A stretch of 64,000 nt of DNA from Phoronis australis. Its lineage: Eukaryota > Animalia > Phoronida. The notes beneath the pieces were generated by a model that was not told the DNA's origin, made no database searches, and saw only the letters and a list, made by a program, of their open reading frames with translations. Below are positions 1,739 to 38,477 of this stretch, piece after piece. Where the stretch lies: contig NMRA01000029.1 in assembly GCA_002633005.1 (NCBI GenBank), forward strand, positions 1,345,796-1,409,795, given 5' to 3'. Every line of letters starts with the position of its first letter. Position 1 is the first letter of the stretch. The position numbers and the translations under genes are program-made.

Positions 1739-1769
<31 letters not shown>

Positions 1770-1803
1770 CATATATCACTGGAACGTGGCTAGCTAGACC
1801 TAC

Positions 1804-6550: not shown

Positions 6551-6635
6551 CTGCAGAATGGGGGTGGATTGACAGGAGAGCTGTTAAGGCTAAAAGTGTG
6601 GTGACAAAAATGTGGTTTGCAATTGCTTGATGCAT
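6551..6635 (-). CDS. Gene A first coding exon: signal peptide
   Basis: ATG at 6635; MHQAIANHIFVTTLLALTALLSIHPHSA-G has a hydrophobic core and ends at a consensus CAG|gtaagt phase-1 donor that is in frame with the 6065 acceptor. Confidence 0.7.
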
Positions 6636-12735: not shown

Positions 12736-15700
12736 CTACAGTTCTAAGTGTCGACTGTTAAATTTGAGTGGTCTTTTGAGAAGAGCTGTTAATACTAAAA
12801 CTATGAAAACTGTTTTAGTCGGTTGGAGGCAGAATATATTGAAAAGTAACCCAATGGTGAAAGCAGAAATCCACTGAATACTTTGGTGGTACCCATGCTG
12901 TATTCCGTAAAGTATTGAAAAAATTGACGACAACACGCATACTGCTGCTAGAATGGTCCACGAGATGATAATGGTCCACCAAGGCAACCTGCAACTACTA
13001 CCTTTCTTCCGATACCGATTGACTGAGTCATTGGGTAAAGCTTGTTTAGCCACTGTCGCAGACGACCGAGCATTGGCATTTTTCAATTCACTAGCCTTAA
13101 CCAACTTTAAAGCAACTTCACCGGCACTAATGGACGCCTCAGCCGAAGTCACGGAAAGTTCACTAACAGTAACGGAGTCTAAATAACTACTTGATGACGT
13201 GTCATTGGAGTCATCACATTCATTGGGAAGATATTGTGGGCTGTTGTTAAGGTTCACGTTGCATGTTCTGAAACGGCTGGCACTGGCGTAGACCGTGGCA
13301 TGTGTAGAAGAGTTACCCCAATCACGCAATGCCATAACATGTTCTCTAGTAGAGCTCGTGTCCTCGGTTTGATCTTTGGCGTTTGCATCTCCAGATGACG
13401 CCTCCAGGTCACACGTTTGAGCATCCAACTGATCATAGATTCCCATTTTTTTTCTCGGTTCGGTCAACCGAAACAGAGACACTATTGCCAGTTCAAAAGG
13501 CAAGGCGAACACGCTAGAATTTAACCCAAACAATATCACTGCCCACGCATTAACACGCGTTTCTAGCCTTGTCCAGTCAGCAGCATCGACGTTAACTTCA
13601 AAGCAAGCTATATCGATACACATTGTGACAAGGAGAATCATCCCAGCACAGGACAGCCGCTCCACACAAGTGAAGTGACTTTCTGGCGGTCTACCGAAGA
13701 CGCTGTAGAATATATGTTCATCGCAAAACCCTCGCTTCATATTAATATTATACGTATTGCGGAAACCTCTCATATCATCCCGCGTGGCCGCACAAAGTTC
13801 CCTGGCGGTCAGACCGCCGTCCTTGTCCTCTGCCAGCCAATTATTGCACAAGAAATACCAAATCTGCCTCGAGTGCATGTCCTGTACACACATGCTGTGA
13901 AGATACCAGGCTGGTGCATTACCGGTGTTGTCGTGCCAGATGTGCACTTTGCCCACAACACCCAGGCATTGATTCGTCTTCATTATGAACGCGTGCTCTG
14001 TCCCACGATACATGCTGCTATTTCTATTTATGTTATTTAAGTGGTGTGTAAGACTGACGCCTTTGTTACCCACAAGACAGATGTAGACTCTGGCCGTCGT
14101 GGATGCACCTCGATGCCAACCCGTGAGCACAACTATCAAGTAGCAGTGGTTATATGAATCGTTGCTGTCACACAAATAAACTATTTCATTACACCTTTTG
14201 TAATAATTGTCAAGTCTTCGGGCAAACGGAACCAGGAGGATGAATAGTAACCAAACTACTCCAACGGATAGGGCAACGACGAAATTTTCTCGAATTTTAT
14301 GAATAAAAGAGACTGCATCTGGTATATGCAACGGATTTGGGAGCTTAAACCACCCGGCAGCCACGGATGTCAGATGGTTGCAAATACAGACGATTTTCCT
14401 CCGTGAAGTTCTTTGCGACGGCCAACAACCGTAGTTCGACCATCTGTCTTCATCGGCGTTGAAGTAGTAACAAGCCAAGTAATTAAGTTCGTATTTTAGG
14501 ACCATCACGTCCTTTTTGCCTGATACACATCTTTTGTCGGTGTTGTTGATCATTGGTGTCAACATCACTTTGTATCGACATTTGCCGTGTTCGGTGAACA
14601 AGTTGTGTTCAGAACTTCTTTGCAGCCACACTGTCCAATTATTCGACAACGAAAGGCTATCATTTATGATCGGAACACTATTTATTTGTGTTTCGTCCGT
14701 TGCAACAATTCCAATGGCAAGGTTAAGTTCTTTTGCATTGGGAAATTGGATTATAGCAGCGTCTAGTCTCAGAATTTCTACCGTCCAGTTAATTTTTTTT
14801 GTCCGTGTTGACACGCTCTCTGCATTTGTGCATGCTAATGGAACAGAATACGTGAAAGTGTAACCTGTACGATTTCCTTCGTCGTCTATAAAGTATGTAA
14901 ACTCTGTTACTGGCGTGTTTCCATTCGGTTTCACAGACACGGGCTCCTTCTTGTCGACCAATTGATACTTTACGGAGATGATCCCTGTTGTTATTTTGCC
15001 AGAGTCTGTAGACCAATTGTAAAGATTGTCAGCTATCCATACAGATTTCGAAATGACAGCTGAATTAAAGCCAGGTTGAAAACCGACAATTATGTCATTC
15101 GCTTGAGAAAGTTGCACGGAGCAATATTCAAAGTCAACGGAATTCTCGAGGTCAGCTGGATCCTTCACATCAACATGGATTGCTATCTTGTTGTTGGACA
15201 TCTGAGTTGGCGCTTCTCCTACTACCTTGATCAAAGAAATGCCGTCAGCTATTAAGTCCACAACTTCAGCTATCTTTTTCGTGGCCGCCATAGGTTTGCC
15301 ACTTTTCAGTACTGGATTTTGATCACCGACTTTCAGAGCATTTTGCAAAACGGTGCTGGTCGCGTTCAGAGCTTCAGTCAAGATTTGTAACGTTTCTTCT
15401 CGGTCACGAGCATCGCGCCCTACCTTACTTGTTATAGCCCTTACAATTTTATTCAATACGGTGGCAGCCATGGAGACAGATTCTATCGTCTCTGTGAATG
15501 ATTCTGTAATCCTTGTCAGTGACAGCACGGCCAATTCACTCGCCAGCACCGGTGGTGGAAGTTTATCAAAGACGGAGAGCAACGTGTTACTTCCATTCCG
15601 CAAATCTTCGTTCTGATCTGCCACTTCATGTACCATGCTTGATGTATAACAAATTAAAGACAGAACACGTGCAAAGTTTCCTTCCGACAGCAGCTTTTCT

Positions 15701-16415
15701 ACATTGCCTGTCGTGTGTTGAAGGACGCTTCTTACACAATCAGCAGTGCTTAAATTCCGTTTAATATATGGGAATTCAATGTCTTTTGTAATTGAAGTTC
15801 CGCAACAATCCATAGCCTTAACGCGGATGTAGTTGCTTCTGTTTTGCATAAAAGGAAACCTACCTGTAAACGTGGGCTCTTTCGACTGACCTAAAAATAA
15901 TGCCGGACCGTTGTGTCCAGTCACTGAGTAGAACTCGTAATTCACCCTAGATGCACTAACTACATTTGAGACGAAACGGGTGCATGACACTGTAAACGAA
16001 ACAAATAGTGTTTGCGTTATTTTTGGCTCAATGCTGCACGTGCCGGCGGTCAGAAGATAATTTTTCGCAACAATAGTAAAACTCCTTAGCAACTTTTCAT
16101 GAGGAAAAATATATGCCTTGAATATGTATTGAAGATCAGGCTTGAGAGAATGAGCCACGATTTCCAAGATGTTTTTCTCAGGGCCTGATGTCTGCAATGG
16201 TATCCGTTCGTTGCTTTTCTCCCTAATGCTCGCTGTCCAGTTATAAATGAGAGGTCGCAAGTGTGAACACCTGGTACAAGTCGCAACAAGCACAATCGCA
16301 CGATCTGTGCGAGCGTATTCCCTGCGATCCATAACACAGTTTGTGGCGCAACGTATCTGAACTTCAGGACAGTTTCCTTTCCCATCCACGCCAGGACAAA
16401 CAAACACTGGGGAAG
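12736..16415 (-). CDS. Gene B terminal exon: polycystin-1/REJ-like (partial REJ, GAIN/GPS, TM1, PLAT/LH2, TM2-TM5); no channel domain
   Basis: 3680-nt exon from the phase-1 acceptor ttccag|CT to TAG. GPS: CYYF...WSNYGC...VCICNHLT. PLAT: YLIVVLTG...TTARVYI.LVG...WHDNTG..PAWYL...WYFLCNNWL. Post-PLAT: RPPESHFTCVERLSC. TM4: LPWW...ILYG. TM5: WISAF...CLQPTK. Confidence 0.93.
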
Positions 16416-17197
16416 CTGGAAAGGAAGAAGGAAATCTCTGTGTGAGCAGTCATGAGAAAGTGAGTCGAAGGAGCCCAGACATACAGATTCATTAGTAATG
16501 GCCGGTTCGATGGGTAAAAAACTCGTCAATCTATCATTTTACCTGAGTATAGCCTCTCAAAACAAGGACAGCTTTTTAAAGTTGTTTTCCTTATTTTGTG
16601 AGGAACCCTCCCAGAGAAATTAAAATTTTGAAGTCATGCCAATGGGCAGCTTATATGTAGGCGTGAACTCCACAATGTCGGCCCGGTTTTTATTTTCGTG
16701 CTCGACATTATTTTTTAGCTCAATGTCAGCGTCGATTATCCTGTTCTCGAGTACAATCTCATTTACGCAGGTGGATTTCTAGTCAAACTTTGCACTTGAT
16801 GATCCCTAGATAAAACCTATAGTAAAGACTCGAGTTTCTGAGAAAAAATAAGGAATCCAGACTCGAACCTATAACTCCAGTCATGGGCCATCAGGTGTAA
16901 ATTGTAGGATAAGACAGTTGTCCGTGTAAATCATATTGTACTCAGGCACACAATGACAGGGACCTGCCTGGAGGCCGTATAACAAGCAATGGGTTTTTTT
17001 CTGAAGCGACTATTTAAAGTCTATAAATTGACTTGTCATCGCGGTTCTCAGGTAATGAATAAAAAGGATATTTTTTAAAAGATCAGAAGTCAGTTCTCGT
17101 CTGTGTCGGATTTACGCTGGTAAGTCATCTCATTCAAAAGTTTGCTATTTGACAAATTCTGTTTTCACCAATGTTTTATTAAATTTGTACATGTTAC

Positions 17198-17455
17198 CAG
17201 TTCTTATGTATAACGAGGCGCTCGACACGTCTTTAAATACTTCTTTAACTGTGTGCACTGCAACCTGGTACGATGTGTTTGGTTGGAGACCTCGGCAAAT
17301 TCCCTGCAATCCTTCCACCTCATAACTATGAATAGTCCCAGAGCCCATGCACGTGAGGCGGTACTTGTCCTTGCTGCCCTCTGCCTCTTTCCAAGACAGC
17401 TGAATCGAGTCCGTGGTTACTACTCTAACGACGACGCTAGTCACTCTTGCAAGGT
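17198..17455 (-). CDS. Gene B exon: fibronectin type III domain
   Basis: ttgaag|AC...ACT G|gtaaca, 258 nt, phase 1-1; SIQLSW...Y...GLQPNTSYQVAV. Confidence 0.85.
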
Positions 17456-17969
17456 CTTCAAATAAAAATTGAGGAATGTCAAATTCGTGTTAAATGCCTT
17501 CAAGGCTACCTACATGCATGTATACACTACACCGTGAAATCGTTCGAACTCGATTTCGTGAGCGCGGAATAAATATACGTGACTTAACAAAGTATGGAGA
17601 TTGATAGACCTTTTGTCAGATATGAAGCAAGAGGGATTCTTGTCGTCATGGTGCTAACAGGGATATACCTAGACTTTAAACCAATATCTGGCAGCGGAGT
17701 CGAAAAATCAAGTTGACCAGGTCAAATATTGATACCTGTAGCACACTTTTTCAAATAATGTACATTGCAAGACTGAAAGTCCCGTGAAAGGTAACCTCCC
17801 TACTTCATTTTGATTAAAACAACGGATGTTAACGCGTTAGTCGAGTTGAAGCTATTAAGCCCAAATATCGCCAAACTCCTATATGCCAAATACATGTATT
17901 TTCAAAATTAATTGCATTTGATGTGAATTTCTGGTTTTATTTTTGGTCGTGCGCCGTAATGAATGAGAC

Positions 17970-18062
17970 CTGATTCGTGCGTTATGGGTACTCATGCAAC
18001 TGATTCGGGCATTATGGGTACACACGCAACTGATTCGTGCTTTATGGGTACTCATGCAACTG
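17970..18062. repeat. 30-bp minisatellite, 3 copies
   Basis: ctgattcg(t/g)gc(g/a/t)ttatgggtac(t/a)ca(t/c)gcaa repeated three times, no spacers. Confidence 0.9.
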
Positions 18063-18125
18063 TCACCATTTGTAGAAAAGTGACGAAAAAAAAGCCGAAA
18101 GTTACGAAATGCACATGGGTGTGTT

Positions 18126-18667
18126 CATTACGGCGTTTTCCCGTTGCTCTCAACTTGTTCGATTCTATAGCCCAACAACAAGTTGGGAAGTTTACCCCGG
18201 TAGCCAATATCATAAATGACTGATTAACTCCATTCTGACATTCATGGTTGGAGGGTCAGCTCTCTTTTGTTCAATAGTTGCTCTAATCTTCAATAAGATC
18301 GCACATGTATCTAGCCTGACTGGGCTCTTCTGTTAAAAATAAAAGTTACGTTATTACATAGTTAGACATAAACCAATAGAATTTCTGAAATCTTCGTCAA
18401 ATGGTGATAACATTTAGTTTTTGAATCGCCAAAATCGCCCAACTGGAACCGAAGTTACAACAATCTATTCTTTCCGAATACACCAATTCACTTTGAGTTT
18501 GACTGTGTTCACACGTGGTCTGTAATAAGCCCGGTAGATAATTGACCTGCTGGTTGTCATACCAGACAAAAGAGTGTGCTTGGTAGTTAACAAAGAAGCT
18601 AGATGTTATCACACGCTCAGAACCCCCTACTTCTTGTAAAGCTACTCAACTGGAAAACGCTGCCATG
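18126..18667. mobile_element. ~540-bp MITE, copy 1
   Basis: TIR cattacggcgttttcccgttg / caactggaaaacgctgccatg; homologous to 41531-41962 and 58490-59032. Confidence 0.85.
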
Positions 18668-20848
18668 TTAGGGATCTGTTTTGAATGACAAAATTATTCG
18701 TGTGCTCGCACTTGGTGATAGTAAGAAAAAGTAATTTTAAGCGTTGAAAGGCGGGTTCTAGTGAAAATGATATTGGTATACCACAGAGTGAAACCTTGTA
18801 ACTGCCTACGGTCTTGGGAACTTTACCTTCCAACAAAGGGAATATGCTGACGACTTGTAATCCTTTACATTAGAGTTAACGCACAGGAAGACGACGACTA
18901 CTGAATCGCTCTGAAATTTGCCCGCTACTTGGGAGACCAGTTACTGAACTCTGTTTGACCAGCGCCTTTTTAGCCGCACTGGCAAGTGCCTAAGCATATC
19001 CCTGCTGCTAACCAGAAACTTCACAGCGAGCGACACTGTGCTGGTTTTCCCGGTGCAGAGCTAAAAGCCTTATCCACAGTTGTACAACAAAGTGACGATT
19101 TTGTCACACTTTTCTGCCAAGTCTGCACATTAACGGTAATTATAGCAAATTCCTGAAAGTATTCCACAGTTACACTGACTGTAACTGCAGCTGTAATGCC
19201 ACGAGAACATATGCCTTTACAGCAATCGTATAATTATTACTTTCGAAAATAAACTAGACGGAATTCGACACAGCTCTCTGGGAACTGCCAAATTTAGATC
19301 AGAATTTTCACCTAGTTCGGAAGAGATTTTGTCACAATAAACTAGTTTTCTTCCCCAATTTTAGGCAGTATTTAGTGTGACGTCACTGCGGCTTGCCGTT
19401 AATTGTTTATGTTTCTGCAATTGCAAGACAAAGAACTTGGAGCAATGCAGAACCTGCCGATTTCATTGACAATTACTCAGATTTGTCGAATTTGATTCCA
19501 ATCCGTGGTTTTAGGCAACGCAACTGACCAATTTCGACTTTGCACAGTTTATTTTCAAGTATACCACAAGGTAAAGAAAAGCGTTCTTGGTCCTTGTTTC
19601 TATTCATTTTGAGACATGCGCTCTCCAAAAAATCATCTAACGCCCGCTTCCATGAATTTAAGCAATGAGGGCATGGTGTCTTTTTGAAAAGTTTCGCAAA
19701 GACACGTAACATCTGAAAGCAACCTTAAAACACCCTGATTGCCAAGCGTTGAGTTAAAATGCACCCTACATCATATTTATTCTTCCCAGGTGGATTTTCT
19801 TTTTTGAAAAAGTGAGCAACTCAAAGGTTAGCGCACCACCAAATAGCTTTCCAAAAACACAGACCAGATTCAAATATGTCTTTTTAGCTAACTGTCAACG
19901 CAATATTACTGGCAGATCAAAGATATCGAGTGCGGGACAACAACGACGTTCTAAGGCAACGTGTTTGGTCCTTCACGAACTAAACGGCGTGAAGTTTATT
20001 GGCCCTACCCAGTCTGCATATGAATAAGTGCAATTCATGGATATTTTCAATTCGGGGTCATACAACTTATTGTGAGTTTGCTAAGAACTTATAATGAACA
20101 ACGGCAATACAGTGTACAGTAAATGTCCTTAGTAAAAGTCGACTATCATTTCACTGTTTACAGAGCATGCATAGGTGAGTGTAGGCAAAATATGGAGGGA
20201 TCGGATGGGAAGCCAGTTGCACCACAATGCACAAGAGAATAGTTACAAACAGTAGGTCACCATAGACACTCGTCGACAGAGCTTTGTGTGGGCGAATAGT
20301 GAGGCTGGTGCTGTAGTTTTCTCTTTGGCTATTCCAGGTAATAAGCCCAGCATTACCATCTAGGGCACCAGTCTCTGAACTGTGCCTCAATACATTACTG
20401 CTGTGTTTTCTCCTCAATTGAGATTCAAATGATTCCTACCTGTTCACTCATTGTTTTACCTGCACTCTCCTGCAACAAGTTTGTATCCAATATTGTGTTC
20501 CGCCATGAATGACTTTTTTATTGAGGATATTTATGGATTGTTGATTCTGACATGGCCATGGACTAAAGTCATTACAGTGTAACTTTGGCTTCCGTCTACA
20601 CACGCTACCGCTGAACTGTTTTCCATTAAAAATTTGAGAGGGGAATGAGCAAACAGAAATTTGGTTTGTGGCGCCGGTGACGCAAGCGACTGTCCAGCGG
20701 CATGTACTGTACATGTATGCAATGGGGCTGCATGACATCACCCATGACTTGTTTGCTAACAGTTATTCAAATCAAAAACATGGGCCCTCGTCTTCTTAAG
20801 CACCATGTTTCCAATGATATGGAGTCATCCACGACATCGTACGCTTAC

Positions 20849-21100
20849 CAGTCTTGATGGCAATGACTTTGCGAGCAGGTCGGAAGTGTCCGTGGATCGT
20901 CGACAGGGTTATGTTGTTACTAGTGCCTGGTATCAAATCACTGAAAGTAAATTTCCTGGCCAAGGGGTCCAAATTGTAAACTCCGTCAGGGTATTCCAGC
21001 TGATAACCCTCCCTGATAGCATTGCGCGGTTCAGTCCACGTGAGTACAATGCGACCATCGCGGCGTTTGTATGGACGGATACGTCGAACTGGTTGGATTG
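20849..21100 (-). CDS. Gene B exon: fibronectin type III domain
   Basis: tttcag|CA...ACT G|gtaagc, 252 nt, phase 1-1; IVLTWTEP...GYQLEY...FSDLIPGT. Confidence 0.85.
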
Positions 21101-22381
21101 CTGAAAACGACAAAGGTTTAGAAATTAGCATGACTGCTTTGGTCAATCTTTTGCTTTTTGACAATGTTACTCGTATTAAGCGATTCCTTAGGAAAGAAAC
21201 GTAATTCTTCTCCGAAATTCTTATATTTTGAAAAAGAGTAACTTACGGTATGTGAGGAAAAAATAAGTTCTTACATGAAACTTCAAAGTTTTTAACACTT
21301 CATTTTATTTAAAGTAAAATTTTCCGAATAATTTACGTTTCACCGAAAAAATGCAAAACACGTAAAACAAAACAAGTACTGCTCTAAGAAATGTTGTTTT
21401 CCTCCGAAATGTACAGTACGTGTTCAACATACGTCACTCAAAGCTAAATTTTGCTGGCTTAAAACAAAAATTGATTGAAACCTTTTGCGCTCATAAAGCG
21501 ACTCAAAATGTCTCGGATTTTAATGCATTTCATAAAAAAATTCACTTAAAATTGCAAATTCGAGAAAACGATCTACAATTTTGAAGTAATTATTGTTACC
21601 TACATGTACCAGCGGCCTGATTATGTTTGAAAACTGGGCTCTTAAGTATAACTTTGCCGCCGATAGGTACATGTACAGTGCACTGTGTGACGGAGCCAGC
21701 TATAAACATTCATTTCACAATCTACAGTTTGTAGGAAAAAATTCCGTTGATGAGAAAAGGACTTTGTTTAAATCAGGTTCCCCGCGCGGATGGCATATGC
21801 ACGCAATTACGGGAACAACTCACTACTCCGAAGGTTCACTGCTCCGAAGATAATAAAAATATCGGACTGTGATCGTTATATTTTTGTGTGTAAAAAATAA
21901 ACGATACTTCAATCTAATACACTTTGGTTTCCTTCGCAGTCTTGTGAAGTTGGCCTCCAAATCCTGTCGTAATGAATTCAAAAAATGAGTTCGTACTTAC
22001 ATTTCAAAAAGAACATGACCTAGAAATATTAATGAACCATCATCCACGATACGTTCACCAAATCCATTCTCCGCTCGCACCATTTCGCAGCACGACAGGA
22101 AAATTTATCCGCTGCACCTAAACCTCACGCACAGAACTGGAAACGGGTTAAAACTTCCTGCAGTAGCCTACCCTGTCTCTGCCAATCCTCGATCAATGGA
22201 AACTGGTACAATACCTCCAAGAGTATCCAAAATGTCCTTGTGTCTCAAAAAATGATTTTATTAATGCAACTTAAAAAAATTAATTGCCTTTAGTATACAT
22301 TTTGCTAATAAACAATCAAAAAAGTTTTGAAATATATTTTTCTATTATCGGTGTGGTACGCCTTGTTTTTACAAGTACGAT

Positions 22382-23463
22382 ACTGAGGAGTATTGAGGAA
22401 AGCCTTTTTCAGACATGAAATGTTGCGTTTGTGGAGGCTGTAGTCACAGCAACTTAACTGAGAAGGTCTTTGTGTTTAAAAATTCCCAAATGCGTGAAAG
22501 TTGCACAGAAACGGCATTGGTTGGTTCGCCGCACGATAGTGTGGAATGTCAGAGTGCAATAGCGACTCAGTTGTGAGCCACACTTTGTTCGCCACATTTT
22601 AAGGAATCGTGTTTCGACCAGACACAAAGACGGCGTTAAAATGATGGACTCGCCACCTTATTACTGTATTTGCATATTTTATACATAACAAGCAAACTGC
22701 TTCCATTCTGTGGCGAGTGATGCCTGGTCCTCTACCCTGGTCCAGATCGAGTGCTACGACACGTATGTTTAGACATTGCGTTTAAATCGTGCTCATTCCA
22801 TCATGGCAATAGTGAATACGAGTGACCCGGGTTTACTGTGGCCTTTGTCAGTGATNNNNNNNNNNNNNNNNNNNNNNNNNNNNNNNNNNNNNNNNNNNNN
22901 NNNNNNNNNNNNNNNNNNNNNNNNNNNNNNNNNNNNNNNNNNNNNNNNNNNNNNNNNNNNNNNNNNNNNNNNNNNNNNNNNNNNNNNNNACTGAGGAGTA
23001 TTGAGGAAAGCCTTTTTCAGACATGAAATGTTGCGTTTGTGGAGGCTGTAGTCACAGCAACTTAACTGAGAAGGTCTTTGTGTTTAAAAATTCCCAAATG
23101 CGTGAAAGTTGCACAGAAACGGCATTGGTTGGTTCGCCGCACGATAGTGTGGAATGTCAGAGTGCAATAGCGATTCAGTTGTGAGCCACACTTTGTTCGC
23201 CACATTTTAAGGAATCGTGTTTCGACCAGACACAAAGACGGCGTTAAAATGAAGGACTCGCCACCTTATTACTGTATTTGCATATTTTATACATAACAAG
23301 CAAACTGCTTCCATTCTGTGGCGAGTGATGCCTGGTCCTCTACCCTGGTCCAGATCGAGTGCTACGACACGTAGGTATAGACATTGTGTTTAAACCGTGC
23401 TCATTCCATCATGGCAATAGTGAATACGAGTGACCCGGGTTTACTGTGGCCTTTGTCAGTGAT
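22382..23463. other. Probable assembly artefact: 474-bp duplication flanking an N gap
   Basis: 22382-22855 is repeated at 22990-23463 on the other side of the N run 22856-22989. Confidence 0.85.
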
Positions 23464-23905
23464 TAAGTATATATTTTGTGAATATTGATCACCTCTTGGT
23501 TCAGTTGATTGTGGCTCACATATGTCTGCACGTCTAACATTTCATCACGGCCTCAAAACCAACGGAAGTTCGTTAAGTGGGGAATCGAATTTATCGTCTG
23601 ATTCTTCAAATACTTGAGTGTGATGCCCATGTCAACCCTCTCCTCTCTATCTCTTGCTCAAACCTGTCATCGTCTGCTGATCTGCTATGATCCCGCCATT
23701 GCAATAATTGTCAAGTGACCAAACGCCTTCCAACCATTACATCATTTGGCGGGAAATTTAGAAATAAATAATATTTCTTCAAAATTAAAAAATCGTGGCT
23801 ATTTGGCACAAAAAGTAATTATTTAGTTGGAATGTATAGTACTTATTTCATATTAGCTAACTGAAACCTCAAAAACTAAGAAAATGCATGACGGGAGCTC
23901 TTTAA
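23022..23905 (+). mobile_element. THAP-bearing Kolobok-like transposon remnant
   Basis: MKCCVCGGC...(frameshift)FP...W...LCSPHFKESCF THAP motif; the element ends gggagctct-TTAA. Confidence 0.55.
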
Positions 23906-24659
23906 TTTTGCTTGCCAGATTCACCTCATTGGCAGACATTGAAAGAAGTGAACTTTCGAAACAGTGAATCTTCGGAGCAGTTAACTTTTGAAGTTGTGTA
24001 TCTTCGGGTCAGTGAAGTGAATGAAACTAACGAGAGCATCAATTATAGACATAGAATGCAAGTTATTAGTTACGGGTCATGAAAATACTGACATACTTTT
24101 GGGTTACAGACATGTTAACGGAAAAATATGAATAGGTAAAACAGGAAAAAAAAACTAACTAACTAGGTGCATGTACGGAATACGTGTGGAAAAGTTAAAA
24201 ATAATGACACAAATCGCAGTCGAATCCTTTTGCATAGCCATAACATGGGACATCGACGGAAACGTCGCAGGACACTACGGTGGAAGATTGGAAATTTATT
24301 TACTAAAATATAATGAATTCAACATTTCACGTCTCCACTTGTTCAAAGTTTGCTTGCAATAATGGGCGATTCCATCTTGTTAAAAGACCTGGCGGCTTTT
24401 GCCCAAAGTCGCCTTCGCCGCTGACTGGAACGTTATTTTCAGTGTTTTCACCAACTATCCGAATATCTTTAGTATGTTGCAATTTTACTTAAATATGAAT
24501 GTTCGTTGTTGTATGTTTACTCAATGTATCCACCATGTCAATCACGCTTATCAAACCCGGTTCCAGATCATGACAGGTATTGGTGGCCTCTTTAGAAAAT
24601 GTTTTATACCTAAAAACTGTTGAAATCACGTACACCTTGGTCTTTAAGACTTTGCTTAC

Positions 24660-24908
24660 GTTCACAAGGCTTGACACTGCACCTTTCGAGCTGTGTGTGT
24701 GCCCCAAGGTCTACGTAACACCAAACTCCACTAACTTTATTACCCTCTTCCGGATGACGTCGGCAGTAGTTCTTACTTCTTTGTACATCTGGTTTAACTG
24801 CTTTATCGGTTACAGACTTCCACCATTGACAAGGATTGCCCAGATGGTCTTCTCCGGTGAATCCTTCGTAGTAGTTGTCTGTCGGTCCATAGCAGACGTG
24901 GAAATTTG
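24660..24908 (-). CDS. Gene B exon: kringle domain
   Basis: attcag|CA...GAA C|gtaagc, 249 nt, phase 1-1; CY...Y.G...G.PCQWW...NYCR...WCY...C...C with six Cys. Confidence 0.9.
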
Positions 24909-25228
24909 CTGAATCAGAAATCGTTAGGGGATGTTTAAAATTCAGCAAAATACTGTTTACGCTACTTAAATGGGGCATGATTCGTCAGACGCACAAGAGT
25001 TCTTTGAACAGACAAAAGCAACCTGGATATGTTCTTCGTTAACCTTGCCCAGCATTTACAAACGTGTGTTCGATCTAGTGAAGTGTTTTCTTTTTTGACA
25101 CGCCAACGGGTGTCTATTACTCTCCTACTTTATGATGTATTTCTTCAATATTAGATGAGAGATAGATTTGTAATGTCTCCGGATTATATGTAAAATCATT
25201 TAACTACAGGAATTGCAAAACGACGTAC

Positions 25229-25453
25229 CACCCAATCGTCTCCCTGCAATCTCTATCTCGCAAAGACCAAATGAAGCTTGGTGGTTAAATTTGACAGTGA
25301 CGTATCGGCCATAGCTCTTGTCGCTCTCTCGGCACAAAACCGTAACGGAATCTTTGATGTCTCTCTGGCTGGAGGATATACCACACACATCGTCCTCTTC
25401 AGATGGTACAGCCGACATTGAAAGGGTGATGACAAAGTTTTGTTTTTGGGAAT
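25229..25453 (-). CDS. Gene B exon: F-type lectin-like domain, C-half
   Basis: ttgtag|AT...GGT G|gtacgt, 225 nt, phase 1-1; VCG...LC...YGRYVTV...LCEIEIAG. Confidence 0.85.
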
Positions 25454-25599
25454 CTACAATAGTCCATCTCAAAGACGGAGTTTTCACAGCCCTAGCACCT
25501 GACTATCTTGACATGAAAGTAACAATAAATAGTTCTTGAGCCATTCAGGAAATGCATAGTTTTACTTGAACAAGTTCTGATGAGCTGTTTTATCACATC

Positions 25600-25830
25600 C
25601 CTAGATCCTTGGGCACGTCTCATCTCCTTCAATGGGATGATGACAATCACTAGTAGTGGTGGCGGGAATTCGGGTCACGTGAAATCTCATTTTCTTGTTA
25701 CGTTGTCAACAATCTCATTTCATGTCGACGTTCATTTGAATTCGGCACCACCATGCTGACTGAGAGGTTTTAGGGCTTGGATGTAGATAGCCTCCTGAAC
25801 CCCTCTGTCGAACAAATTTTTCATCGCATT
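25600..25830 (-). mobile_element. Penelope-like element 3' fragment (end of GIY-YIG endonuclease)
   Basis: FDRGVQEAIYIQALKP...GG resembles the PLE C-terminal consensus FERGVKEAIYI..LKP.LN.DGG. Confidence 0.65.
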
Positions 25831-26597
25831 GGATCTCCAAATGAGTTTATCAATGAAAATGGTTTCTGATATGACTTTTGAAACTGTGCCTGACATTCCA
25901 AAACCAGGCAACCGTTTTCTTTCATTCGGGACAAAGGAAAGCTCTATCGCTGTGTCATTTGGGACAGCTATTTTAAGTAAATTCGGTCGAGCAAAATATG
26001 GTTCAACTAAAAATAATTGACATGAAGATGTAAAACGATTAGTCATAAAGCCATCATAATCCTGACAAGTAGCTTCTGGGTATGAAAATGGGGGGAGGCA
26101 GTTCCTTATTGCTGGAAGCCATACTTCTTTCATTAAATGACTCGCCGTGACAAGTGTACTTGTTTCAAGAAAGTCAACCGGCCTTCACGAATATCACATG
26201 CGCGAAAATTATAATCTCTCCACTCGAACTCTAACTCCAACTTGAGTAAATTAGCATGCATATACACAGAGTATGCGTTTGCACTTGATGACCGCGAAAC
26301 TATAAGCTATGTAATTCTAATAAGATTGTTTGAACTTCAGCCTGTAGCTTGAATTTAGAAGTCATCAAGCACACATTTGGTTTAGATATGCGTTATTCAA
26401 CTTTTATCCACCTGGTATGGAACCACAGTTACGCATATACAGTATTGAAGTTGAAGCTGGGCTTGGAATTCGACTTGGAGAATAGAAATGCATGCCCTAA
26501 ACTTTTGCAACCCGCCTTGAACACGGCTGACTTAACATTATTGCCAAAGCTGGTTTTTGCAAACAAGAGCGCAGCAAATACTGAGCAAATACGTTAC

Positions 26598-26771
26598 TGC
26601 AGCAGCCTGTTAGTTTTCTCAAGGTGACGTGTTCAATGTGGTGCATTGAACGAAGGTCGACTCTGAACCACGGCTCCTCCTTTTCTGCCGTACGAGTGCA
26701 CGTATCTGTTCTCCCGTCTACCAGTTTGTAACCGTGGCTACTTCCATACATGTAGGTGCTGGACTGCTCAA
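26598..26771 (-). CDS. Gene B exon: F-type lectin-like domain, N-half (5' boundary uncertain; may start at 26835)
   Basis: VEQSSTY...LVDG..DTCTRT...PWFRVDL...GCC, ending TGC A|gtaacg in phase 1. Confidence 0.8.
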
Positions 26772-30416: not shown

Positions 30417-31060
30417 TTAAAAGGATACCAAATCCAAGCTTGGCCTATTGACAAATACTACAAGCGACTTTCCCATCCAGTTCCCTAAAAAAAATAATAC
30501 TCTGTAACCACTGACAACCCTCAAAAGTTTGCTGAAAAATTTGAACACTTGTTTCAAAGTTTGCTAAACGAACAAGCGTAACCTACCGTTTTTGCGAATT
30601 ACACGGCAACTGTGAGAAAGGTCCACCCACCAAGGACCATATTGTCCGAACTTTGACAAGGGGTGTATGAATTTTCACGTGATTTCTTCCTTAAAAATAT
30701 TTCTAAACCCTATTTTGATGATTTCAACGAATCCTCGTTCTCTCAATTGCTGTTGCATCATTCGCGTCTCTTGAAAGATAAAGCAGGAATCAACTAAGAA
30801 TTCGTACACACTATCTCATAAATTGGACATCATGGTCCTTGGTGGGTGGTATTTTCCCACAGATGCCGCGTAACTCGCTAAAATCGTAAGTCACGCTTCC
30901 ATATTTATCAAAATTTGTAAGTTTTCTGATTTTCCTCAACAAAACTTTGTAGGGTTGTCGAGCCGTTACAGAGCATTATTTCGTTTCAGAGAACAGGATG
31001 GGAAAGTCGTTTTTAGTATTAATTTGTTAATTGGATAAAACCGGGTTTGGTATACTTTTT
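30417..31060. mobile_element. Foldback element with ~270-bp imperfect inverted arms
   Basis: gactttcccatcc...ctctgtaac...ccacccaccaaggaccat at left is mirrored by atggtccttggtgggtgg...gttacagag...ggatgggaaagtc at right. Confidence 0.75.
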
Positions 31061-31999
31061 ACTTGGAAGATTGACACCAGAGATGCATTAACAGGTGACA
31101 GAATAAGGATTGATGGAAATCATCTCAGGGTTTACTATCCCTTTAAAAGAATACGAAGTACATAAGGATATTGATGAATTATTACCTCACTACACGGAAC
31201 TGGTGGAAACTAAATGTACTTAGAAGGCTACCCTGTCCCTGCCAGTAGTCAAATGTATGCAATGGTTACTAAATGGACAAAAAACAATAATTAATGCATG
31301 TCTGTTCTGACTCATTTTCAGACAATCAGAGTAATGAATTGTCGGAGTAGTGAAAGTTCAGAGTAGTGGACTTTACGAGAAGTGAACCTTTGGAATAGTG
31401 ACACGTAACCCTAGAAATCTTTTGCATCGTGTTTGTTGCCGAATGAAGTCATATTTTCTGCTGTTTTGTTTCATGGTCGATTTTAAGACATTCACACCAC
31501 ACTACTTTTTGAGAGCTAGTTCGCTATTTTAAAACTTAACTAGTTATAGACATTTACATCTAGACTCCCTTGTTACACTCTGATGTATCGTTGGCCAGAA
31601 GCAAATTCGTCTAACGCCAGTAGCTGCAACAGTTTTGTTGTTGTTGTCCAGCTGTAACCTATCTCTAACGGATAGCTGGGGGGGGGGGGGNNCCCCCCCC
31701 CCCGCCCAGCTACGGGACTGCACAACTATGTTGGTGAAGATAAATTTCATTTGAAAAGCGGTACAGTATTCTAAGCGAATTGAACTGGAAAAGTTGGCTG
31801 TCTTCATTTCAGCAAATGATTGGCAAACAAGGACGGGATCTGGCGATTTGTCGCTTTTATTATTTGATAATATATGCAAGAAGAAAAGTTAACATGGTTG
31901 TTGTTTTCTTTTGAATGTATTCTACCTACTCTCATAAATTGCAGTGCCACACGTTCGTGAATACACTACGTAGGTTGACTAGCGCCAGTTACTGTGATG

Positions 32000-33810
32000 C
32001 TAGACATGCGTTATGGCACTTTTGTCGAAACATATCGTAGCCTAGCCAGTCATTCACCTGGTGATTGATGAGCCTGAAGCACACATGACCTTTTTGGCAC
32101 CACTGTTGCGATTTCGTTAAGTTGGACTTGGTTGCTAGACAGGAGTTTCAAGCGTTTCCTTTGGTTTTTGCAAGATGCTGTCAGGGTGTAGTTGCTATGG
32201 TGTTGTTAACCATGATTTAAACAAATGTGATGAAGATGTGGTGTTCTTGAAGCTTCCTGCGGAGATTCTTGAAGTTCTTCCGTTTTACGGAGACGTACAT
32301 TAAAATAGAGGCGTCCTTTGACGTTGTGCTAGACGAACGAGGCAAGATAACACCAGAAAGGTGAGGTGGAATGATGACACGTATGACCAGGAGATTTGGT
32401 AAAGCAGAATGCGCAGTAGGGATGTTGTCAGCTGTGGCAGTGGATTTGTGTTGGTTTTCGAGTCACTCTGATTTCGGGGATAGATTCAATTACGTTGGAA
32501 GAGTTAACTATACTGGATCGTAATCTCTTAGAGATGGCGTACTGCATGTTCCGAAGAAAATGTTCCTCAGTTATGTTATGGAGACCTCCCTACTTGATGT
32601 TGATGGTAGTTCTAGCGAAATATAAATCGAGTATTCTAAAATACCCTTTGTCCAATACTTGAAGAAGGTGGCTTGAGCAAAAAAAGTAATTTCAGGCGGT
32701 GTGGTAGACTGGTACACGTTGTACCAGACGTGCGCAGGCCGTGCAAGCGGGCCCATTGCCATGCTCACCTGGAATTATTTTTGTGCTTTATTAATGTATA
32801 GTTAAAACCGAGCTGAGGAGCTAGAAACCCGACTCAATGGTCTAGCAGTGTGTCTCAGTGGGACTCGAACCCACGACCTCGAGTAAAGAAGGCGGGAACC
32901 GTCACACTAGGCCAAACTGCCTCCTCCTTCTGCTTGAGTAAGAAGGTACACATGCATGTAAAAGGGTCGCCTTGCATTGACGGGAGGATCTATTAGCTGT
33001 TGGTTAAAGCGATTTGGACGATTATGCATGGATAAGATACTTGGTTTGCTTGTGTCAGTATTGGATAGGAAACCAAATGTTGTGAAACACAATAAGATTG
33101 TACCAATGTTTATCCAACCATAAGTTATGGCTTTTAATGTCAAGCCAGGTAAAGCTGATGATAGAATGACTGTAGTATGGCTTTCTGATATAGTGCGCAT
33201 GACAAGAGTAGGAATCTGCCACCGTCTGCATTGCACACGTATACAACTGAAGGATGGACATTCTGTTGTTTCTGCAACGTTCTTTGTCTGACCCTTTTTG
33301 GTGAAGATGTTGACTTTAAAGTTGACTTTGGGAGTGGAAAACAGTTCTCCGTCAACGTTGCATATTTGTCTGTTTTGATGCAAGTTGCACTTCTTGGTAT
33401 GATTTTTGTAAAATAGCATCTTGAGTGAGAAATACTCTTTGCTTATAGTGTGAGTCTGGCGTTGTGTATGCCAGTTGATCCTTGTGCCTCATTTTAGTAA
33501 TCCATTTCTCCGAATTGGCTAGGTGCTCATATTTTAAAACGACTACCACTGAACGAACCTTTGATCCTGTGAGACGCAATCCAATTTCTCGTATAAACAC
33601 CAAACATTTCTCAAAATTTCTTGTTGGTATCGTCGCTCAAACCAAACCAATGAAGAATTTTCCGCAGTCTTTGGAATCTCACTTGGTCTCATAATAGCGG
33701 AATTGTGGAAGTTGGAATGCCTTTCCACTTTGTTGACATTGTTGACCTTGATTTTGGCTTTGGACATTTGGCTCTTGGTATAGACGGAGCCCGGTTTTCT
33801 TGGCATTCTG
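32000..33810 (-). mobile_element. Heavily degraded Penelope-like retroelement
   Basis: Frameshifted remnants YEKLD / RVFLT-RCYFTKIIPRS (PLE N-terminal type) and NLRRKLQEHHI...NNTI (pre-endonuclease type); many stops; assignment is by motif recollection only. Confidence 0.45.
32775..32923 (-). mobile_element. tRNA-derived SINE
   Basis: Minus strand GAGGCAGTTTGGCCTAGTG (A box)...GGTTCGAGTCCCAC (B box), followed by a body and an A-rich tail with aataaa. Confidence 0.65.
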
Positions 33811-34045
33811 AAGTCAGGTACTAGAATTTATGTTAAGAAAATGACGTGTTGTATTTTAAAACACTCGTTTCATTCTAAATTCAATTACAATTTTAACAAT
33901 ATGAATACATTCATCGTACGATCAGTCGTAGGTGACCGTACGTCCACCCATCTTATAATTAACAGGGATGGCCAAAAACGTTAATAGCACTTACTTCGAT
34001 TACATTTGATTTAGGCCAGAACAGAAGCACGAACTTAGAAGTACG

Positions 34046-34325
34046 AATTAGCGCGTAAGTAAATAACGACATACAGTGTATCTATCCAACGTTTCGGTTT
34101 ATTACTCCAAACCTTTGTCAAGGAAACGATTCACATGCTCAAAACAGGCGACACAGGAAGAGAAAAGACTGTACAGGTACACGTCAAAATGCATTGTGAG
34201 GGGGAGAGACCAGAAATCAAAACAGTTGGAGCTCAAATGAACGAATGTTTCTATTGAGGTAACGCTCAGCATGAATTATACCGAAACGTTCGATAGATAT
34301 GTTTGTATTTACTTACGCGCTAATT
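34046..34325. repeat. Inverted repeat containing a hammerhead-ribozyme-like motif
   Basis: aattagcgcgtaagtaaata...tatctatccaacgtttcggt versus accgaaacgttcgatagata...tatttacttacgcgctaatt; minus strand 34123-34086 reads CCTTGACAAA-GGTTT-ggagtaat-AAACC-GAAACGTTGG. Confidence 0.6.
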
Positions 34326-34959
34326 TTATAGTTAGCACTAACTTCATGTTTTAGCAGGTGACAAAAGAAATTGACTGTACTGTTCGAAGATTACGTCCAG
34401 TCGTATGATCTCAAATCGTGCTATGCCGTAGGACTATGGTTTCATACAATATCTTTTATTATAAGTTGGTTGTACATTTTCTTATAGACAAATCTGATTG
34501 AATAAACGTGAAGCTAGTCAAGTAAACTAATGGAGGTTCTATCATGAACTTTGAAAACAAAGCCTAATGTTCAGCATTTTAGCAGGGGGTGTGCAATACT
34601 TTTAAGAATTTCATTTGAACAACCATTTTCGAAGTGTTATTAAATACCAAAGTCCTTCCAGATAAACAAGGAAGTTCGGAGATAAAATCAATCTACTTTT
34701 GTGTATTTGTCCAACCGATCACTATTGCTAAATAGTCACTTTTCCGTCTTACAAGTACTTTCACTGAACTGCAACACATGTGGTCATAAACTCGTCATTT
34801 ACCGCCGAGTGAACACCAGCGACGTGAAACGGGTCGTACGTGTGTAAGATTTATTGGGAGACCTGGCTCCTTAATAAAGCTATAAACTGCTATGCTCCGT
34901 GAGTAACGACCAAGTCCAGATCCCCTTTGCAGGTGCGTTGTCTGTTTTCACCCGTCATG

Positions 34960-37900
34960 TCACTGTAATTTCGGTACGGCGGACGAAACAACACGATAAC
35001 TAATAAGCTTGATAGGTTTCCTCAGTATCAAGGTTACCACCATTATAATCAGCATGGTTTTCAGCCACTCAACACAGAAAACGCTGATCAGCATTCCGAT
35101 AAGAAACGAGACCAACCACTGTAAACTTCTGTAGTATCCGTATTCAAGCCCGTAAAGCACTGTGAGGAAAGAGAACGTAAAACTCATCGTGAACAGTACC
35201 AACCATATGACGTAAAGGGACCAACGAGGCAACAGGAGGCGCGTCGTTGTCTCCTTTACGTTCATCTGAGAAACATTGGGCACACTGTAGTTGTTGTTGT
35301 TATTTTGTCCAGGGAGACCATGAAAAGACTTTCTCGTATCTTCACAAGGGGACTCTGATACTTCATATGAGATAGACGTTGTCACAATATCACTTGAGAT
35401 TGTATCAGGCAAAATCAGTGCCGTCGATAATTGACTGTCTTGCAAAGAGATTTTATCATCAGCAGTTTCTGTATCGAACGAATTGCCAGATTTAGAATAT
35501 CGCGGAAACTCGGCCTTCTCGCCGGTGTTGTCGGCAGATTGTGTTTGGTTCCAGGCAGCTGACTGGATCAACACAGGAGTTTCTGGTGGAGGTTGGACGC
35601 GTTGAAACAGCACGGTGAAAATAAAAATCAGAGGAAATACTATCAGACTCACTGGAAAACTAAAGGAAACTGCCGCCATGATATCAAAAGTTTCACCAAC
35701 GTTTTCACGAAGGGAAAACTCCGCAGAGGAAATATCTGCAAACATGGTCGACAGCACCATCAATAGCGCACACGAGAGACGTTGAACATAAGTGAAATCA
35801 CTGTCTGGTGGCCTTTCTATTATACTTATCCACAAATGATAGTTACGTGGTCCTCGGTTGGTTTGTATTGGGAATACATTCTTCAACGCAGTTAGTTCCT
35901 TGGGTGAAGCAACAGCTAGTTCCCGTATCGTTGCACCGTCCCCTTTGTCAGTACCCAACCAGTTGTTGCATAAGAAATACCACAATGCTCCTGTCTGGAG
36001 ATCACACACGCATAGAGCGTGGAGGTACCAACTAGGGGATTCACCTGAGTTGTCGTGCCAAATCGTAGCTCTACGCAAATGTCCTAGGCACTTTTCGGTC
36101 GTCAAAATGAAAGCACTTGCAGAACCGCGCATCATCCCGTTACCTATCCCGCCGCAAATATGGCGAGACAATGTCTCACCACGATCTCCAACGAGCGTTA
36201 GGTAGACATTGGCTTTCGTTAGAGCATCCGTTTGCCATCCAGTGAGCACAGCAACAACGTACACATAGGGATATGACCTATGGTTGTCTCTTGCACGGAA
36301 AGTACGTAAAATTCTCTCGCACTTTTTGTCCCTTCGTCTCACCACGGGAAGAAGTAGAAAGTACAATCCCCACACAACACAGACTGCAGTTAAAACAATA
36401 TAATTTGTATCCACTGACTCCAGCAGTTCCACCGCCCTCTCAACATGTAGAGTGTTCGGCAGTCGAAGAAGCCCGCCTGCGTAAGTCGATAGGTGGTTGC
36501 ATTGGCAGTAAAGGGAATCTTTGGTTGGCCTGCGTGATAACCAGCACCCAGACGTATTCCAGACTGCAGCTTGCGTTTGCCAATATAAGCAAGCGTACTG
36601 TTTTATCTCTAATACAAGTTTAATGTTTTTTGCAATGTTGGACCTACACCTTTTGTCTCTTTTATTTATTTCTAGACCAACTGCCGCAGAAATGACGTTC
36701 TTTTTATTGTTTTCCAGTAAAAATGACCAATTAGATTGCCTTGAAATTACAAACAGCCTTTTTCCGCGCAAGTCCTCAAAGTCCTTTCCGGTTATATTAG
36801 TACTCGCTTCTTTCGCAATTGCCCAAATGGTGGCGTTGATGTCATGACCGTTCGCAAATCGTATCAAAGCAGCACCTTTGCCTTGTAGTAGAGTTTGGCT
36901 CTGTATGAAATCGAAATAGAGACGTCTTTTAAGACTCTCACATGCCGACGGTATAGAGTAATTCAGGTGAACAAATTCTCCCTTTTGACTTCGATTTATG
37001 GAGAATTTGATGCCTATCGAGATTCCATTGTCCCTCTTAGTGGTTAAAATGTCGTTCTTGAATTTGTCTTGATACTCCAAAGACATTATTCCTGTAGCAA
37101 TTACGGCGATATTTCTTGACCAAAAGTAAGGGTTGTCAATGAACCCTAAAACTTTGCACATCACCGTCAAATTATGTCCATGGTGTTGACGTAGGAACAT
37201 TTTAACTCTTCCAGTATCCAGAATACCTCCTTTAAAGGGAAGAAATCTCTTCAAATCATTAGCCGCGGTGAATTCCGCTAAGACTGAAACGCGGTCATAA
37301 GCTATTAATGTCGGTTTTTCGCCGAAATTCATCACCTCCAGTGTGGCATCAGCTATAGAATTCAGAACACCGACAAGTTCTTTAGTCAATGATTTTCTCC
37401 TCCAAATATTCAACTCCTCACCGTTCGTTGAACGATTGCCCAACGCATTAGCAAAAATGTTACTCGCCGTTTGAGTTGCTTCTTTTAACACCTCGGTACT
37501 TTGGGAACGGCTTTGGTTTTGGACCAGGTCATTCCTTAACATATTAAGGTAGTTCGTTAATGTCTTTGCCGCAGCTATTGAAGGTTCAGCGCTGACGACG
37601 CCGGTCATAGACGTAACCTTCATCATTGTGCTGATAGCCTGCTTTACTCTTTCAGCAGATACCCGTAAAGCGGTTAACATCTTGAGTAGCTTTTCTCGTT
37701 CGCTTGCTTCTGTTGACGTAAACGAGCTGAACTCGATCAGCGCCAGCGCCTGACCTATATGTCCGGTGTTTTGGAGACTTTGAAGCAAACCTTCCAAGGA
37801 TTCCATCGATGAACGCGGGTCTCTTGGATCCTGAATTGAGACACGTGGAAACTCGATATCTGTCCCGTGCCTGGCTCCGAACTTATCGATGACGATAACT

Positions 37901-38477
37901 GTTAAAATATTCTTGCAATCTTTAAAGTATGGGAAGATGCCAGCGTACTCGGGTGCATCCGTGCGTCCAAGAATCACTTGAGTCCGGTTTCCGCAACGCG
38001 CCATGTACTCGTATGTCAAATCTGGAACTTCAAAGATGACGTTCGGGCAAGTTACGGTGAAGTTTACCAGAGATATTCTTGGAACGTCGACGAGTATGAT
38101 ACACCCATCCGCTTCAAATTGAAACTTCTTCACCTCTACTTCGTAATCTGCTGAAATCGACATGTCATTAATTCTCATTCCTACTTTGAATGTGTACTTC
38201 GTATTTGGGGTCAAAATCTGGGACTCGATTTCGAGAACTTTGCCTTCAGTCAGTGTGCTGTCAGCCTCTATGTTAGGCACATCTATATCGTCTCTAACTG
38301 ACGTCTCTATCTTCCAGTTGTAGGTCACATACTTGTAAAATTTGCAGTTGACACACACGGCACGTAGTTTCAACAACTTGCCAGGTCTTATATGAGAAGT
38401 CTGGTCAATGGGGCAGTTCGTGAGGCACACCACAAACACGCGAGGACATAGGCGAATGCCCTCTAGGATAGCACAAG
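34960..38477 (-). CDS. Gene C terminal exon: polycystin-1/REJ-like (partial REJ, GAIN/GPS, TM1, PLAT/LH2, TM2-TM5); no channel domain
   Basis: 3518-nt exon from the phase-1 acceptor ttgcag|CT to TGA. GPS: CLYW...WNTSGC...YCQCNHLS. PLAT: YVVAVLTG...ANVYLTLVGDRG...WHDNSGESPSWYL...WYFLCNNWL. Post-PLAT: RPPDSDFTYVQRLSC. TM4-5: LPRW...VLYG...WLVSF. Collinear with gene B. Confidence 0.93.

Follow-up and report, generated by a model that had tools for sequence, protein, structure and literature searches.

Two genes on the minus strand of the window (the 64-kb stretch of DNA analysed here), designated B and C, have polycystin-1-like products that terminate directly after the fifth transmembrane helix (TM5), leading us to propose, with a probability of roughly 0.55, that they represent channel-independent cell-surface receptors. 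Retained receptors without a channel are the best reading because the truncation of C is seen in RNA, B and C are sister paralogs and both bear marks of long purifying selection.

Open reading frame B spans 12736-16449 (1237 codons from stop to stop) and open reading frame C spans 34960-38502 (1180 codons). In each gene, a single long last exon encodes a partial REJ region, GAIN/GPS, TM1, PLAT and TM2-5 (Table 1), and the TM1-TM5 N-terminal membrane domain is present in both proteins. Pfam matched GPS (above the cut-off) and PLAT (E-values of 1e-18 and 1e-16) in B and C, respectively, together with a weak partial REJ in C (positions 208-406 of 452, below the cut-off) and no REJ in B. The cleavage-site motifs are intact (HL↓T in B and HL↓S in C). 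B ends in LLKRPLKFNSRHLEL and C in ILRKPIKLISYRVVSSAVPKLQ, with the stops 12 and 19 residues beyond TM5, in agreement with the 10-20 residues of the first-pass annotation; its description of GPS-TM1-PLAT-TM2-5 in long uninterrupted last-exon frames is borne out by the open reading frames, Pfam and the predicted fold, and RNA shows its end coordinate, 38477, to be the acceptor of the last exon of C, the sequence of which is corroborated by a 5228-bp DNA contig.

Table 1. Features of genes A, B and C (positions in the window)
Feature	Position	Strand	Remarks
Gene B terminal exon	12736..16415	-	3680 nt; acceptor 16415 predicted; FN3-like REJ part, GAIN/GPS, TM1, PLAT, TM2-3, Ser/Thr-rich loop, TM4-5
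Gene B GPS	about 14359-14475	-	CICNHL↓TS
Gene B PLAT	about 13816-14142	-	
Gene B TM4-5	about 12775-12987	-	
Gene B stop	12736-12738	-	TAG
Gene B FN3 exon 2	17198..17455	-	predicted, phase 1-1
Gene B FN3 exon 1	20849..21100	-	predicted, phase 1-1
Gene B kringle exon	24660..24908	-	predicted; Pfam score slightly under cut-off
Gene B F5/8-type (galactose-binding-like), second half	25229..25498	-	predicted from position and likeness to gene A exon 1790-2107; without Pfam match
Gene B F5/8-type, first half	26598..26771	-	predicted
Gene C 3' UTR	34000..34959	-	end approximate; stranded RNA depth
Gene C terminal exon, coding part	34960..38477	-	3518 nt; acceptor RNA-proven; two FN3-like REJ domains, GAIN/GPS, TM1, PLAT, TM2-3, Ser/Thr-rich loop, TM4-5
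Gene C GPS	about 36478-36594	-	CQCNHL↓ST
Gene C PLAT	about 35941-36261	-	
Gene C TM4-5	about 35020-35232	-	
Gene C stop	34960-34962	-	TGA
Gene C FN3 exon 7	38806..39087	-	donor RNA-proven
Gene C FN3 exon 6	39332..39610	-	acceptor RNA-proven
Gene C FN3 exon 5	40272..40553	-	both ends RNA-proven
Gene C FN3 exon 4	42156..42437	-	donor RNA-proven; predicted acceptor (alternative: 42461)
Gene C FN3 exon 3	43801..44067	-	acceptor RNA-proven; predicted donor (alternative: 43750)
Gene C FN3 exon 2	44606..44896	-	RNA support at both ends
Gene C FN3 exon 1	51105..51350	-	loose-end reads at 44897 (32 reads, one run) map to 51106
Gene C kringle exon	51880..52116	-	predicted
Gene A 5' exons	1180..6640	-	likely third paralog; 3' end outside window
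Gene A signal-peptide-like exon	near 6550-6635	-	by eye
Gene A F5/8-type exons	near 5830-6065, 1790-2060, 1190-1410	-	

The six exons of B form one continuous open frame of 1626 codons and the nine of C one of about 1893 codons. The first exon of C was not found in the window, nor was a signal-peptide exon for either gene; the automatic scan also missed the one visible in gene A and is thus uninformative on this point. A 6.2-kb intron containing an LTR retrotransposon separates FN3 exons 1 and 2 of C, in which FN3 exon 5 is a recent duplicate of exon 6 (81% DNA identity).

A model of C residues 600-1180 contains five long membrane-type helices, with two FN3-like sandwiches in the REJ region, and aligns only to residues 3063-3624 of human polycystin-1 (PC1; Z 18.4, r.m.s.d. 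5.0, 295 residues). According to this alignment, the truncation point coincides with the structural NTD/CTD border, as drawn in the accessible part of PMC8357825. The GAIN domain of the model matches those of BAI3, BAI2 and latrophilin (Foldseek E of 1e-7 to 1e-5). Adhesion GPCRs likewise combine a GAIN domain with a modular adhesion ectodomain, but B and C have five helices with an inserted PLAT instead of a 7-TM bundle (the model shows no seven-helix bundle and Pfam no 7tm match) and no known G-protein pocket.

Neither TOP nor the six-helix polycystin cation-channel domain was found in B, in C or anywhere in the 64-kb window. Pfam gave no match to Polycystin_dom or PKD_channel in either protein. 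A channel HMM from 77 relatives, which detected 137 of 149 40-residue channel pieces in a leave-out control, returned nothing under E 3.8 from 3335 six-frame open reading frames of at least 12 residues; a tblastn search with the 77 channel relatives gave one match (60695-60802, plus strand, E 0.012), which was judged to be noise. The short tails after TM5 also contain no C-tail G-protein motif or coiled coil. RNA-proven donors of gene C score 2.3-2.6 under a simple donor matrix, whereas no GT lying between TM5 and the stop exceeds 0.1 in C or reaches -5 in B. The genes next downstream start within 6-8 kb. The earlier observations that no strong donor precedes the stops and no channel frame follows them therefore hold. 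Neither protein can by itself conduct ions or supply the TRP-fold fourth subunit.

In other respects, the two proteins resemble the 11-TM PKD1 family (PKD1/PC1, PKD1L1-3, PKDREJ and sea urchin SpREJ3-6), which is characterised by 1:3 assembly with PKD2-type subunits, in having what may be REJ-type FN3-like domains, GAIN with HL↓T/S, TM1, PLAT and TM2-5, with the best relatives at 26-36% identity over GPS-TM3. They differ from this family in being without TOP, S1-S6, the G-protein motif, the coiled coil and the acidic TM5-TM6 linker, in carrying kringle (B and C) and F5/8 exons upstream and in encoding the REJ-to-TM5 block in a single exon. The basic-basic-P-x-K tail noted in the first-pass annotation is present in both, but as proof of a common truncation it is weak and was rejected: of 100 channel-bearing relatives, 23 have [KR][KR]P after TM5, the longer [KR][KR]PxK being found in just two channel-bearing proteins among the relatives collected. 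The apparent loss of the acidic linker is a more telling commonality, with a median of six Asp/Glu in the 20 residues past TM5 in 100 11-TM relatives versus one in B and none in C.

B and C are sister paralogs in quick trees, with 27% identity. Synonymous sites between them are saturated: four-fold sites are randomised (28/101 identical) and third codon positions are near random (identity at positions 1/2/3 of 0.61/0.69/0.36 in PLAT and 0.41/0.77/0.35 in TM4-5). At the 62 columns conserved across 125 11-TM modules, the conserved residue is retained at 54 in B and at 52 in C, compared with a median of 59 and a fifth percentile of 49 for the 11-TM modules themselves; C has lost a few residues that are universal in other groups, such as QP in TM5, which reads EW. 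Judged from these alignments, both genes carry marks of long purifying selection. Since the two are sisters, have diverged this far with third positions near random and have nevertheless kept their core residues, TM6-11 were likely lost once, before the duplication, and the truncation was retained despite divergence, as the first-pass annotation had supposed. No ortholog of B or C was found in another species: the best single-stretch relatives are near 30% identity, and further searches gave 15 matches and 48 matches (45 of the latter LOXHD1-type PLAT repeats), none of them an ortholog.

That the architecture might be undescribed was not sustained. A vertebrate PKD1L2/L3-like gene (database label 'PKD1L2') kept across fishes and amphibians shares GPS-TM1-PLAT-TM2-5 and an early end without a channel; from bichir to frogs, its proteins stop about 30 residues after TM5 (median 30, 92 proteins). 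It differs in being nested in the PKD1L2/PKD1L3 clade, in keeping the acidic tail and in often carrying a C-type lectin domain, whereas B and C branch far off, outside the vertebrate clade in all four trees. The trees favour independent origins, and an AU test, based on a quick 25-row tree that has long branches, modestly rejects a single origin (p 0.041). The vertebrate gene is probably the channel-less 'partial pkd1l3' of fishes, viewed as decaying in the consulted portion of England et al. 2017 (PMC5318412), given its architecture, its stickleback and gar members and its adjacency to PKD1L3-type modules. In the open literature (subscription journals being outside the scope), only PMC5318412 and PMC1934368 were relevant to a five-helix class. 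In the excerpted text of the latter, sea urchin SpREJ1, 2, 7, 8, 9 and 10, known from full cDNAs, resemble B and C in falling short of 11 helices and lacking a cation-channel domain; however, they have 0, 1, 2 or 6 predicted helices (six in SpREJ7, by description) and none is described there with five. Six channel-less invertebrate matches (Pecten, two Branchiostoma, Patella, Ptychodera and Romanomermis; tails of 39-109 residues) were not counted as 5-TM because they keep the acidic linker, nest among 11-TM relatives and in some cases continue into TM6; they may be incomplete gene models.

The adjacency of the vertebrate 5-TM gene, which lies immediately 5' of an 11-TM gene in the gene models of sturgeon, frog and lizard, is compatible with a split subunit, in which the receptor half joins a separately encoded six-helix TRP-fold subunit or PKD2 in trans, a gene-level copy of the PC1 cleavage in the TM5-S1 loop (described in the sections consulted of PMC9672506). 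The C-terminal half of PKD1L3 alone is a working channel with PKD2L1 (PMC8357825, in part). We nevertheless consider such an assembly unlikely for B and C: the window holds no channel half, the known assembly surfaces (TOP, S1-S6 and the coiled coil) are all absent and most teleosts retain the 5-TM gene with the channel part of the locus gone (PMC5318412, partial text).

The ectodomains of B (F5/8, kringle and two FN3) and C (kringle and seven FN3) differ by phase-1 exon shuffling, and all variants checked in C, among those listed, change an amino acid (4/4 in the last exon and 3/3 in the FN3 exons), a small sample that hints at relaxed or diversifying selection today. Both observations would suit a non-signalling role, in which the helices merely tether a sheddable lectin or adhesion ectodomain (in defence, mucus or adhesion) or the proteins sequester the ligands of full-length polycystins; a parallel is offered by sea urchin REJ proteins that have 0, 1 or 2 helices (PMC1934368, as excerpted). 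A role as decoy or anchor seems rather improbable, however, since a single helix would suffice for anchoring, whereas no region is better preserved between B and C than PLAT (49% identity, the ectodomain showing 25%), and TM2-5 have likewise been preserved.

Three raw RNA runs labelled as the same species show that the early end of C is real. Stranded coverage does not end at the stop but extends over a 3' UTR about 0.9 kb long: in two runs, the stop-spanning bin has depths of 40.9 and 39.4, which amount to 89% and 104% of the respective coding means (46.0 and 37.8), and all reads lie on the expected strand. Depth remains at 21-29 down to about 34000, partly from a repeat, and falls to 1-4 below 33834; AATAAA occurs at +105, +500 and +857 after the stop. 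Upstream FN3 exons are spliced onto the long exon, the acceptor of which is supported by 47 reads in two runs, and the gene has at least four GT-AG joints plus one loose-end joint. C is expressed in two of the three runs and essentially absent from the third, which suggests that its expression is regulated. B yields no more than a trace of reads (depth below 1.3; two runs have none), too few for joints and not evidence of silence. A second transcript leaving the long exon before the stop for channel exons outside the window, so that an 11-TM form also exists, could hide as a minor form, as two expected C joints are absent from those listed (15 out of 30 joints, 24 out of 414 loose ends) and B is so sparsely covered; the steady depth across the C stop, the poor donors past TM5, the close downstream genes and the lack of channel sequence in 64 kb make it very improbable. 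Decay of truncated duplicates towards loss, as proposed for the fish gene, might be read from the seven of seven non-synonymous C variants among those listed, the near silence of B in these runs and the long B/C branches, but is scarcely credible given that both frames, 3.5-3.7 kb long, and every predicted exon have remained open in spite of randomised four-fold sites, that core residues are kept and that C is spliced and expressed.

Under the preferred reading of channel-independent receptors, B and C are likely self-cleaving adhesion or lectin receptors acting through PLAT. The lectin/kringle/FN3 ectodomain is predicted to bind glycans or matrix at the cell surface, where the proteins would be located; the GAIN domain would cleave itself, and the five-helix bundle may transmit load or ligand binding to PLAT in the cytosol and to the Ser/Thr-rich loop between TM3 and TM4, with PLAT as the putative output. 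In PC1, PLAT binds lipid and arrestin, the G-protein motif is part of the C-tail and the target of the stalk agonist is TOP (PMC9672506, in the passages available). With the C-tail motif and TOP both absent, G-protein signalling, which the first-pass annotation had entertained, has no anatomical basis in B and C and was rejected as the best mechanism.

The receptor half likely works on its own, as the short form of C is transcribed and a gene of matching short form has persisted in fishes and amphibians alike. Frog and plaice proteins of the same architecture are 50% identical, a degree of sequence conservation which shows that a five-TM protein can be kept very long. On balance, we favour the view that five-helix polycystins are a separate class of working receptors, with at least two origins through cuts at the NTD/CTD border, one in an invertebrate-type lineage and one in bony vertebrates, the vertebrate gene standing beside an intact 11-TM gene; GAIN-TM1-PLAT-TM2-5 would then be an autonomous signalling unit requiring neither channel nor G-protein tail. 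The C-terminal half alone can build a channel (PMC8357825) and TOP and the C-tail contain the known PC1 signalling elements (PMC9672506), as far as the consulted parts of these sources go. Natural proteins consisting of the N-terminal half only isolate the question of what the first five helices and PLAT of PC1 do, and the vertebrate 5-TM gene makes the role of this half testable in zebrafish or Xenopus. The answer may also bear on how truncating PKD1 alleles could behave.

With GT-AG introns, about 40% GC and an LTR retrotransposon, the window has the features of animal DNA. It contains a tandem array of three minus-strand genes: the polycystin-1-like B and C, and A, a likely third paralog. 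The predicted exons of gene B join into a single open frame of 1626 codons (F5/8, kringle, two FN3 domains and the long last exon) and those of gene C into one of about 1893 codons (kringle, seven FN3 domains and last exon), with phase kept throughout the internal exons of both models. The block from REJ to TM5 is a single exon with shuffled phase-1 exons upstream, which may point to a retrocopy origin, as for the intronless PKDREJ (PMC1934368).

Features of the window (window-relative coordinates)
Feature	Position	Strand	Remarks
Gene A, 5' exons only	1180-6640	-	Likely third paralog; signal-peptide-like exon and F5/8-type exons; 3' end beyond window
Gene B	12736-26771 or beyond	-	
Gene C	about 34000-52116 or beyond	-	
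Non-synonymous variants, gene C coding exons (7/7 checked)	35716, 37011, 37201, 37670, 40409, 40465, 42276		
LTR retrotransposon	46607-49641	+	Pfam matches to RNase H and integrase, each in its own frame; two terminal repeats of 134 bp that are 90% alike; within RNA-supported gene C intron 44897-51104
Tandem duplications	7699-8813 (557 bp), 22382-23463 (474 bp)		Copies 99% identical; an assembly gap lies at the centre of each duplication; probably artefacts of the assembly
Multi-copy repeat	10340-12010		High RNA depth, both strands
Second repeat family, three copies	18125-18668, 41531-41965, 58489-59033		High both-strand RNA depth

The first-pass annotation described B and C as long reading frames that stop shortly after TM5, and this description is correct: by a TM4-TM5 block profile, the stop follows the end of TM5 by 12 residues in B and by 19 in C. 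Both proteins have Pfam matches to GPS and PLAT, and neither has one to a channel domain. A channel profile that recovered 137 of 149 control pieces gave zero matches among the 3335 six-frame ORFs of the window. In the AlphaFold model of C residues 600-1180 (pLDDT 76.6, 60 sequences), five long helices surround the PLAT sandwich, and the TM3-4 loop is disordered; the model's best structural match is human polycystin-1 (PC1) residues 3063-3624 (Z 18.4), which fall under the definition of the TM1-TM5 N-terminal domain in PMC8357825. The C ectodomain model (pLDDT 74.3) resembles GAIN domains and FN3 pairs.

Following PC1 topology, the ectodomain of B and C would lie outside the cell, with PLAT, the short basic tail and a TM3-4 loop rich in Ser/Thr (23-25%) on the cytosolic side. 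According to PMC9672506, the G-protein motif and coiled coil of PC1 are located in its C-tail, TOP is the proposed target of its stalk agonist, and phosphatidylserine, PI4P and arrestin are ligands of its PLAT. Of these elements and the GPS site, B and C retain PLAT and the GPS site alone, which favours (probability roughly 55%) a putative self-cleaving adhesion or lectin receptor acting through PLAT over a split subunit, a tethered decoy, hidden splicing or decay. That B and C are split subunits rejoining a channel half appears unlikely, and a tethered decoy slightly more so.

Three raw RNA runs and one DNA run were mapped onto 33000-45500 for gene C. It is transcribed from the expected strand in runs X5 and X6 (depth 29-53 over the last exon), with essentially no RNA in X7. 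The bin spanning the stop has 89% and 104% of the mean coding depth. Beyond about 33830 the depth drops to 1-4, in keeping with the AATAAA at +857 after the stop, the transcript end being placed by depth and not by a direct poly(A) read. At least four GT-AG joints were found, and a loose end ties 44897 to 51106. Hidden splicing to a channel is highly improbable. No joint leaves the last exon of C among those listed (15 of 30 joints, with 24 of 414 loose ends), a sample that leaves room for a minor form. A 5228-bp DNA contig, from a run that may be the source of the assembly itself, spans this exon with two substitutions and the stop unchanged. For gene B, four runs mapped onto 8700-22800 gave a last-exon depth below 1.3 in X5 and X6, whereas X7 and X8 had no reads there; no splice joints were seen in that interval.

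B and C are 27% identical over 1230 alignment columns, with PLAT the best-kept part (49%). Four-fold sites are randomised (28/101 identical), second codon positions retain 0.61-0.77 identity in GPS, PLAT and the helices, and 54 (B) and 52 (C) of 62 columns conserved across 125 11-TM modules are kept; beside these values, decay of the two genes has very little to recommend it. The variants in gene C stand against this reading of constraint, in a small sample: all four listed in the last exon and all three checked in FN3 exons change a residue, which may point to diversifying selection, with 142 further variant rows beyond these.

No close relatives of the B and C proteins were found in the sequence collections searched. 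The TM4-5 block is present in 97 of the best 150 of 3427 matches (the other 53 were left out); of the 97, a channel is present in 86 and missing from 11, five of the latter being vertebrate (bonefish, bichir, plaice, frog and newt). The frog protein as query gave 218 matches; among the 120 listed, 92 stop a median of 30 residues past TM5, 27 have a channel and one has no TM4-5 block, counts that do not represent frequencies since the length filter (567-1805 residues) removes most full-length proteins. In a 236-module tree, a single clade (support 0.995) unites 97 such 5-TM modules, five modules from fused models and one bowfin model that carries a channel. The fused models of Pelobates, Acipenser and Phrynocephalus comprise a module of this clade and then an 11-TM module. 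The second module is placed with or beside PKD1L3, and the first is annotated by itself in Pelobates fuscus (1123 aa). We read the fused models as two adjacent genes; an 11-TM PKD1L3-type gene apparently follows directly downstream of the vertebrate 5-TM gene.

This conserved vertebrate polycystin, about 1000-1100 aa and labelled PKD1L2 in databases (P0043, P0050, P0056, P0066, P0106, P0175, P0182-P0297), ranges over bichir, sturgeon, gar, many teleosts, caecilian, newts and frogs, with a diverged copy in a lizard model. It is probably the 'partial pkd1l3' of teleosts and gar, channel-less like B and C, which England et al. 2017 (PMC5318412) did not consider bona fide, described as possibly in the course of loss, and studied no further. 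Sequence comparison suggests a separate, conserved gene, known from database models and not from proven transcripts. In every tree B and C are sisters (SH-aLRT 100, site-mixture model), on a branch distant from the vertebrate clade; a tree constrained to unite the pair with that clade is worse by 18 log-likelihood units (AU p 0.041), and the exact position of B and C is unsure because the branches are long.

PKD1-family members with fewer helices are known among the SpREJ proteins, with 0, 1, 2 or 6 (as given in PMC1934368). No paper treating five-helix polycystins as a functional class was found in the literature searched, and the available sections of PMC11448475, PMC6294549 and PMC13197933 add nothing. 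The channel-less state of B and C is real; expression holds for C, and vertebrates provide convergent support.
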